64,000 bases of DNA from Shigella phage sb1: sequence record PQ666539, one strand, 5' to 3'. The notes below the pieces were generated by a model that saw nothing but the letters and a program-made list of their open reading frames with translations, made no database searches and was not told the origin of the DNA. The position numbers and the translations under genes are program-made. This document shows, one piece after another, positions 15,774-17,484 of the stretch (position 1 is the stretch's first letter; each line of letters opens with the position of its first letter).

Positions 15774-17484
15774 TAACCTTAATTGGTTTGTTGGTGTTGT
15801 TGAAGATAGAATGTACCCATTAAAATTAGGTCGTGTTCGTGTTCGTGTGGTTGGTCTGCATCCACCTCAAAGAGCACAAGGCGATTTAATTGGTATTCCA
15901 ACTGATAAATTACCGTGGATGTCAGTTATTCAACCTATAACTTCTGCAGCAATGTCTGGAATTGGAGGCTCCGTTACTGGTCCGGTAGAAGGAACTAGAG
16001 TCTATGGTCATTTTTTGGACAAATGGAAAACTAACGGAATTGTCCTTGGCACGTATGGTGGAATAGTTCGCGAAAAACCTAATAGACTTGAAGGATTTTC
16101 TGATCCGACTGGACAGTATCCTAGACGTCTAGGAAATGATACTAACGTATTAAACCAAGGCGGAGAAGTAGGATATGATTCGTCTTCTAATATTATTCAA
16201 GATAGCAATCTAGACACTGCGATAAATCCTGATGATAGACCACTATCAGAGATTCCAACTGATGATAATCCAAATATGTCAATGGCTGAAATGCTTCGCC
16301 GCGATGAAGGATTAAGACTAAAAGTTTATTGGGATACTGAAGGATATCCGACAATTGGTATTGGTCATCTTATCATGAAGCAGCCAGTTCGTGATATGAC
16401 TCAAATTAATAAAGTTTTATCAAAACAAGTTGGTCGTGAAATTACCGGAAATCCGGGTTCTATTACAATGGAAGAAGCGGTAACTTTATTTGAATGTGAT
16501 TTGGCTGATGTGCAACGTGACATTAAATCACATTCTAAAGTTGGCCCAGTTTGGCAAGCAGTTAATCGTTCTCGTCAAATGGCATTAGAAAATATGGCAT
16601 TTCAGATGGGCGTTGGCGGTGTAGCTAAATTTAACACAATGTTAACTGCTATGTTAGCCGGAGATTGGGAAAAGGCATATAAAGCTGGTCGTGATTCATT
16701 GTGGTATCAACAAACAAAAGGCCGTGCATCTCGTGTTACCATGATTATTCTTACAGGTAATTTGGAATCATACGGTATTGAAGTGAAAACACCGTCTAGG
16801 TCTTTGTCAGCAATGGCTGCTACTGTAGCAAAGTCTTCTGATCCAGCTGATCCTCCTATTCCGAATGATTCGAGAATTTTATTTAAAGAACCTGTTTCTT
16901 CATATAAAGGTGAATATCCGTATGTTCACACGATGGAAACTGAAAGCGGTCATATTCAGGAATTTGATGATACCCCTGGGCAAGAACGATACAGATTAAT
17001 TCATCCGACTGGAACGTATGAGGAAGTATCACCGTCAGGAAGAAGAACAAGAAAAACTGTTGATAATTTGTATGATATAACAAATGCTGATGGTAATTTT
17101 TTGGTAGCCGGTGATAAAAAGACTAACGTCGGTGGGTCAGAAATTTATTACAACATGGATAATCGTCTCCACCAAATAGATGGAAGCAATACAATATTTG
17201 TACGTGGCGATTAAACTAAGACGGTTGAAGGTAATGGAACTATCTTAGTCAAAGGTAATGTTACTATTGTAGTTGAATGTAATGCTGACATTACAGTTAA
17301 AGGAGATGCTACCACTTTAGTTGAAGGAAACCAGACTAATACAGTAAATGGAAATCTTTCTTGGAAAGTTGCTGGGACAGTTGATTGGGACGTTGGTGGC
17401 GATTGGACGGAAAAAATGGCATCTATGAGCTCTATTTCATCTGGTCAATACACAATTGATGGATCGAGGATTGACATTGGCTAA
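15757..17484 (+). CDS. 5: gp5 baseplate hub + tail lysozyme + beta-helix spike, interrupted by in-frame TAA at 17212-17214
   Basis: lysozyme domain and VxGxxxxx beta-helix repeats; 576 codons as T4 gp5. Confidence 0.9.

Follow-up and report, generated by a model that had tools for sequence, protein, structure and literature searches.

Gene 5 (baseplate central spike/tail lysozyme) lies at positions 15757..17484 (+) of the 64-kb stretch of Shigella phage sb1 DNA analyzed here (the window). Its 575 codons plus stop are interrupted by an in-frame TAA at codon 486 (17212..17214, +). Is this stop a real feature of the spike, or a property of the recorded sequence? We find that it is one hit of a window-wide substitution load and not a real feature of the spike: It is neither read through, nor a natural gene split, nor evidence of a needle-less gp5. 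Judged from the pattern of the changes, the load itself is very probably (probability of about 0.9) non-biological, or at least unselected.

The interrupted spike gene

The nearest records to the window are about 97% identical to it (megablast, 25-kb pieces), and the window is not T4 itself. The gene 5 stretch shares 99.2% nucleotide identity with gene 5 of Escherichia phage Killian and matches 514 phage records, whose hosts are nearly all Escherichia, Shigella, and other enterobacteria. The four relatives compared in detail (Killian, UGKSEcP2, ZCEC15, and T4) are Tequatrovirus or T4-like. Gene 5 is flanked by gene 53 and by genes 5.1/5.4/6, an order that is the same in the relatives. An N-terminal OB-fold domain (Pfam Gp5_OB, E = 3e-65, residues 33-173), a central T4-lysozyme-like domain (Phage_lysozyme, residues 183-310), and beta-helix sequence (Gp5_C, including residues 460-483, and Gp5_trimer_C) are all present. 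The lysozyme domain also has a paralogous match to gene e in the same window (42% identity). The initial annotation had identified a T4-type gene 5 encoding the hub/tail lysozyme; comparison with T4, together with the Pfam and Protein Data Bank (PDB) matches, bears this out.

The sequence at the stop reads ...GTA CGT GGC GAT TAA ACT AAG ACG.... The resulting open reading frame (ORF), 15757..17214, encodes 485 amino acids that end in ...NTIFVRGD directly before the TAA. Translated as a single frame, positions 15757-17484 give 576 codons including the stop, with one internal stop (codon 486). Past that codon, the frame reads TKTVEGNGTILVKGNVT..., up to a terminal TAA at 17482-17484. The coordinates, sequence strings, and codon count of the initial annotation thus agree with the sequence, the ORF list, and the translation. 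It was also right that T4 has Glu here: Codon 486 of T4 gene 5 (NC_000866) is GAA, in the context FVRGDETKTVEG, and it is likewise GAA in the three nearest relatives, Killian, UGKSEcP2, and ZCEC15. The TAA derives from a G>T change at 17212.

The beta-helix of gp5 spans residues 389-575, with the lysozyme domain shielding 389-482 and with 483-575 exposed to solvent (Buth et al. 2015, PMC4576200). The stop had been placed before this helix, which is incorrect, since a Gp5_C repeat already occupies residues 460-483. It falls inside the beta-helix and would remove only the exposed distal half, residues 487-575 (17215..17481, +). This distal part remains open in frame and intact except for G508C. 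Its 89 residues match T4 gp5 487-575 in PDB 1K28, 4JJ2, 4OSD, and 4KU0 (E about 1e-50), and residues 487-575 are the crystallized fragment that carries gp5.4 (PDB 4JJ2 and 4KU0). Thus, the product as written would be expected to lose the distal needle that binds gp5.4, as initially proposed. One uninterrupted frame through the beta-helix is found in all relatives examined and fails here, at codon 486.

The initial annotation had also raised the possibility of a natural stop in reference genomes, followed by a spike ORF with its own start. No relative among the phage records, IMG/VR, JGI, or GTDB has the stop. A separately initiated distal spike ORF was rejected, since the first in-frame ATG, GTG, or TTG after the stop is an ATG at codon 554, and the gene is split in no relative.

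Premature stops across the window

All annotated Killian proteins were mapped onto the 64-kb window by tblastn, each stop was rechecked at the level of its codon in Killian, UGKSEcP2, ZCEC15, and T4, and the affected genes were named from their position in the T4 gene order. We detected 26 premature in-frame stops in 23 genes. The structural and packaging genes affected are 3, 5, 6, 9, 10, 16, 17 (twice), 18, 22 (twice), 23, 27 (twice), 29, 48, 51, and 57A; the others are uvsY, denV, e.5, e.6, e.8, a small ORF after uvsW, alt.-3, and an alt paralogue. At all 26 stops, the aligning relatives carry a sense codon that is one base step away.

On the coding strand, 18 of the stops arise by G>T, 7 by C>A, and 1 by T>A, so that 25 of the 26 are of the G:C>T:A type. 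The commonest codon change is GAA>TAA (13 cases). Besides gene 5, it affects the e.6 homologue (6353..6355, -), gene 57A (12247..12249, -), gene 6 at codon 35 (18418..18420, +), gene 9 (25107..25109, +), gene 16, the small terminase (33858..33860, +), gene 17, the large terminase, at its second stop (35461..35463, +), gene 18, the tail sheath (36125..36127, +), gene 22, the scaffold, at its second stop (42312..42314, +), the small ORF after uvsW (51075..51077, +), uvsY (52141..52143, -), gene 51 (53609..53611, +), and the second stop of gene 27, the hub partner of gp5 (55075..55077, +). GGA>TGA accounts for four stops: in the e.5 homologue (6039..6041, -), at the first stops of gene 17 (34975..34977, +) and gene 27 (54634..54636, +), and in gene 29 (55897..55899, +). 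TCA>TAA accounts for three: in gene 10 (26189..26191, +), at the first stop of gene 22 (42042..42044, +), and in the alt.-3 homologue (59586..59588, -). TAC>TAA occurs in the e.8 homologue (7753..7755, -) and in gene 48 (57684..57686, +). Single cases are TGC>TGA in the denV homologue (3072..3074, -), TCG>TAG in gene 3 (13504..13506, -), GAG>TAG in the alt paralogue (61449..61451, -), and TTA>TAA in gene 23, the major capsid protein (43617..43619, +), which is the sole stop outside the G:C>T:A class. None of the 26 window stops derives from AAA>TAA or CAA>TAA, which fits change dominated by G:C>T:A and not a reassigned codon.

The stops were also sought in other sequence collections. A 61-mer centered on the gene 5 TAA matched 372 phage records in INPHARED, none exactly, and the best matches had one mismatch. 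In IMG/VR, a degenerate pattern that allowed all synonymous flanks recovered no contigs with TAA and three with GAR; the exact flanks of codon 486 occur there once, with GAA. The TAA pattern was absent from JGI metagenomes and from GTDB genomes. Likewise, 61-mers around the gene 23 stop and the second gene 17 stop found no exact match among 487 and 469 phage records, respectively.

Genes 23, 18, 17, 6, 10, 27, 29, 48, and others on the stop list are essential in T4, as established by T4 genetics. A phage with the window sequence as written could not form particles. Whether a 485–amino acid gp5 is ever produced is therefore moot. The idea that something noteworthy happened to gene 5 alone is unsupported, given 25 other premature stops in 22 other, mostly essential genes of the same window.

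Substitution spectrum and selection

Alignment of the window to the four relatives covered 58-62 kb of each and gave 56,329 comparable positions. Changes were polarized lineage by lineage and counted as private to one sequence where the other four agree. In the window, 720 changes are private, and 222 of them (31%) belong to the G:C>T:A class (115 G>T and 107 C>A), equivalent to about 1.1% of all its G:C pairs. In the control lineages, the same class makes up 14 of 164 private changes (8.5%) for Killian, 5 of 66 (7.6%) for UGKSEcP2, 18 of 248 (7.3%) for ZCEC15, and 167 of 2439 (6.8%) for T4. The excess in the window relative to the three close controls is highly significant (Fisher test, P = 2e-23).

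We show that the G:C>T:A changes of the window bear no trace of selection. Those in coding sequence comprise 158 missense, 18 silent, and 23 nonsense changes (79, 9, and 12%, respectively); a slightly different codon background gave 159, 18, and 22. When every possible G:C>T:A change was enumerated in the same codons, the expectation without selection was 79.3% missense, 8.6% silent, and 12.1% nonsense, which fits the window closely (χ2 test, P = 0.95). The A:T>G:C transitions of the window comprise 168 silent and 22 missense changes (88% silent, with 41% expected; P = 6e-40 against neutrality). Such a predominance of silent changes is what purifying selection normally leaves in real divergence. 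No nonsense changes were found in the three close control lineages (Killian, UGKSEcP2, and ZCEC15). “Nonsense” counts for the T4 lineage were left out, since they are an artifact of placing single T4 changes on the Killian codon background where codons are divergent. A smaller missense excess is seen among G:C>A:T, A:T>C:G, and A:T>T:A changes, and the noise is thus not purely G>T; from the counts, we estimate that there are perhaps 80 further unselected changes of other types.

The G:C>T:A changes are spread evenly. Their rate is 0.7-1.7% of G:C sites in all sixteen 4-kb bins, and no base preference was found at the six positions on each side of them. Rates in the sixteen trinucleotide contexts all lie between 0.5% and 1.5%, with none standing out; the CCG context, at 0.87% relative to 1.1% overall, shows no CCG>CAG enrichment. 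A context-specific error or modification motif was accordingly rejected at both the ±6-nt and the trinucleotide level. The order of G>T and C>A along the window is random (111 runs versus 111.9 expected, z = -0.12), and on this runs test, lesion segregation from one damaged strand was rejected. Depurination followed by the A-rule was rejected because A>T is not in excess relative to the controls. The 64 kb contain just three isolated indels, each of 1 nt: a deletion at 28276, within a CCC run of gene 12, and insertions at 2389 and 30825, the latter directly upstream of gene 13. On these few events, a long-read/homopolymer error model was rejected. The remaining alignment gaps are compensating pairs in divergent segments.

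Gene 5 conforms to this background. It has 672 G:C sites, 74 of which can yield a stop by G:C>T:A, and at the window rate, 7.4 G:C>T:A changes and 0.81 stops are expected, with a probability of 0.56 for at least one stop. Thus, relative to the window, the stop is no more than chance. The gene differs from that of Killian at 14 nucleotides, every one of them a change private to the window. G>T accounts for five: four missense changes, D20Y (15814, +), V44L and M45I (15886..15891, +), and G508C (17278, +), and the stop, E486stop. G508C turns VEGNAD into VECNAD, at a position that is Gly in T4, Killian, UGKSEcP2, and ZCEC15. A further private change, R247C, is C>T. Gene 5's five changes, with one stop, are as the background predicts. 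The window gp5 and T4 gp5 (PDB 1K28, 4JJ2, and 4KU0) share a length of 575 codons, gene position, and OB, lysozyme, and beta-helix domains, and differ at 15 of 575 residues, the stop counted. In contrast to that of T4, the window gene has TAA for GAA at codon 486 and carries five missense changes of its own, D20Y, V44L, M45I, R247C, and G508C, which are seen in none of the four relatives.

The same type of change reaches the tRNA genes. ARAGORN detected ten of these at 9561..10388 (-), with anticodons tct, gtt, gta, cat, tgt, tga, tgg, tcc, taa, and ttg, and in several of them, private G>T or C>A changes disrupt conserved base pairs. A T-stem G-C pair is broken in this way in both tRNA-Thr and tRNA-Leu, and the CAU-anticodon tRNA has private changes at the D-loop G (position 18) and in part of the D stem. 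Placed on the ancestral cloverleaf, these changes cost 1-4 kcal/mol each.

Origin of the substitution load

These patterns suggest that the Tequatrovirus (T4-like) segment, as recorded, carries recent, unselected point substitutions, overwhelmingly G:C>T:A and numbering ~220 in 56 kb. A single G>T change turns GAA into TAA, and the gene 5 stop would need no mechanism of its own. Nonsense changes in genes 23, 18, 17, 16, 6, 10, 27, 29, 48, and others block replication, and the changes would thus have bypassed the phage life cycle, probably arising in the DNA sample, at the sequencing or assembly stage, or when the record was handled later.

G>T changes result when A is inserted opposite an oxidized guanine. 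From the spectrum, oxidized guanine (8-oxoG pairing with A) is most likely the kind of cause behind the G>T load. Oxidation during library preparation generates C>A/G>T artifacts at low allele fraction and with a preference for CCG (Costello et al. 2013, Nucleic Acids Res 41:e67, PMC3616734). The window load resembles these artifacts in that the same class is dominant, that its cause appears to be non-biological, and that it is unrelated to gene function. However, the published artifacts have a low allele fraction, vary with read orientation (G>T in read 1 and C>A in read 2), and are enriched at CCG, whereas the window changes, known here from the consensus alone, stand in the consensus and lack a context preference. 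Because the changes are at consensus level and without CCG enrichment, an oxidative library artifact is no more than a candidate for the particular source.

A living phage might carry a true ochre mutation in gene 5 and tolerate it if gp5(1-485) can still assemble, if readthrough or suppression overcomes the stop, or if the distal helix is produced on its own. The downstream frame is indeed open and nearly intact, and in the laboratory, particles assemble without gp5.4, which is seated on the missing part (PMC12407873). That gp5.4 is dispensable offers no rescue, since the other 25 stops remain: They are of all three kinds and lie in 22 other genes, and the same plea would be needed for genes 23, 18, and 17. 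Furthermore, none of the ten window tRNAs reads a stop, TAA is gene 5's own terminator, the start at codon 554 would leave only 22 residues, and no relative among the phage records, IMG/VR, JGI, or GTDB has the stop. In one respect, the window resembles classical conditional-lethal nonsense mutants of T4, for example the 5.4 amber mutant (PMC12407873): A single-base change makes a stop in a late structural gene. Yet laboratory T4 mutants have one or a few designed stops, paired with suppressor hosts, and the window has 26, of three kinds, in 23 genes. We consider a tolerated ochre mutation very unlikely. Stop codon reassignment, or programmed recoding with a phage suppressor tRNA, is more improbable still. 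Some phages do decode TAG or TGA into an amino acid with a suppressor tRNA of their own, the window has many in-frame stops, and 13 of its 20 in-frame TAAs replace Glu. However, TAA also stands for Ser (3), Tyr (2), and Leu (1), TGA for Gly (4) and Cys (1), and TAG for Ser and Glu; three stop codons thus lie in frame at the positions of six amino acids, and TAA also terminates gene 5. A single G>T, C>A, or T>A change separates every stop from the codon of the relatives, with no AAA>TAA or CAA>TAA, and nonsense changes of this chemical type are outnumbered sevenfold by missense changes. No suppressor tRNA, that is, none with a stop-reading anticodon, is present among the ten window tRNAs (ARAGORN), and relatives at 97-99% identity use the standard code.

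Two further explanations were weighed. T-even DNA carries glucosylated hydroxymethylcytosine, which nanopore base-callers handle poorly, and the changes fall almost wholly at G:C pairs, the modified pair in such DNA; systematic base-calling errors at modified bases might therefore be suspected. Such errors are expected to be context specific and, in long-read assemblies, to be accompanied by homopolymer indels. The window shows no context signal at 12 flanking positions or in 16 trinucleotides and has about one isolated frameshift in 64 kb, which makes this source unlikely. A search of the literature on nanopore errors at T4 hydroxymethylcytosine found nothing directly usable. It is also conceivable, though we think it quite improbable, that the record describes a real mutated molecule: a non-viable genome in which heavy oxidative damage or mutagenesis, or another G-specific lesion, converted ~1% of G:C to T:A, and which was amplified from one or very few templates. 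A dead virion might have undergone single-particle or very low-input amplification, such that lesions became fixed in the consensus without selection. This would account for changes that are at consensus level, random, free of selection, and of the 8-oxoG chemical type. On the other hand, conversion of 1% of all guanines is very high for damage, and a single damaged strand should give long same-strand runs, whereas G>T and C>A alternate at random here (z = -0.12). If true, such a molecule would show directly, across the whole genome, what lethal oxidative hypermutation looks like in a phage particle.

For the biology of gene 5, the window provides no evidence of a needle-less spike, of readthrough, or of a split spike gene. 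An unselected load in the record, the reading that we prefer, acts instead as a quality flag: Single-base oddities in the window, including stops, odd residues at conserved positions, and broken tRNA stems, should be presumed to belong to the same load until shown otherwise, and proteins predicted from this record would be unfit for use as natural variants. A simple test can expose such a load, whereby private substitutions are polarized against a few relatives and the silent, missense, and nonsense counts are compared with the expectation under no selection.

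Indels

The short-tail-fibre gene, gene 12 (27783-29326), carries a 1-base deletion within a C run at window position 28276, where Killian, UGKSEcP2 and ZCEC15, the three nearest relatives, read AAAAACCCAAAAA and the window reads AAAAACCAAAAA. This deletion splits the gene into two frames, and tblastn accordingly returns gene 12 as two HSPs in differing frames, covering amino acids 1-168 and 164-515. It is the sole isolated deletion-type frameshift that we found within a gene in the 64-kb window. An isolated 1-nt insertion is also seen at 2389, in the denV region.

Gene 1, which encodes a dNMP kinase (12462-13172, minus strand), has a 12-nt deletion at 12861; the missing segment, TTCTTTTCCTTC, is present in all four relatives (the three above and T4). 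Because the reading frame is kept, this deletion is probably real variation.

Genes 5.1 and 5.4

Gene 5.1 immediately adjoins gene 5.4 in the window (17519-18307), whereas in T4 the two are separated by segC and 5.3, neither of which intervenes here. The product of gene 5.4, which is seated on the tip of the gp5 spike, has two private missense changes, that is, changes seen in the window only, with the four relatives in agreement: codon 26 is altered by a C>A (18089) and codon 79 by a G>T (18248). Both are of the same type as the rest of the G>T/C>A load.

Gene content and mosaic variation

On the minus strand, 59928-63998 holds two alt-like ADP-ribosyltransferase paralogues in tandem; they share ~40% identity, and a TAG at 61449 falls in one of them. 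Killian likewise has a tandem pair, while T4 has a single alt gene together with the remnants alt.-1 and alt.-2. Killian also places a homing-endonuclease ORF (Killian sequence L005, 15941-16633) between uvsW and the small helicase ORF downstream; this ORF is absent from the window (51002-51045).

The tRNA cluster (9561-10388, minus strand) comprises ten genes: Arg, Asn, Tyr, Met/CAU, Thr, Ser, Pro, Gly, Leu and Gln. It lacks the homing-endonuclease gene segB between tRNA-Arg and the remaining tRNAs. In contrast, the clusters of T4, Killian and ZCEC15 contain segB and lack tRNA-Asn and tRNA-Tyr, while UGKSEcP2 has the window's tRNA set plus tRNA-His. These differences are natural mosaic variation and bear no relation to the premature stops.

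The fibritin gene wac (29342-30796) shares 81% amino acid identity with its Killian counterpart, with many compensating indels, whereas neighbouring genes are 97-99% identical. This divergence is a recombinational mosaic patch typical of T-even phage.
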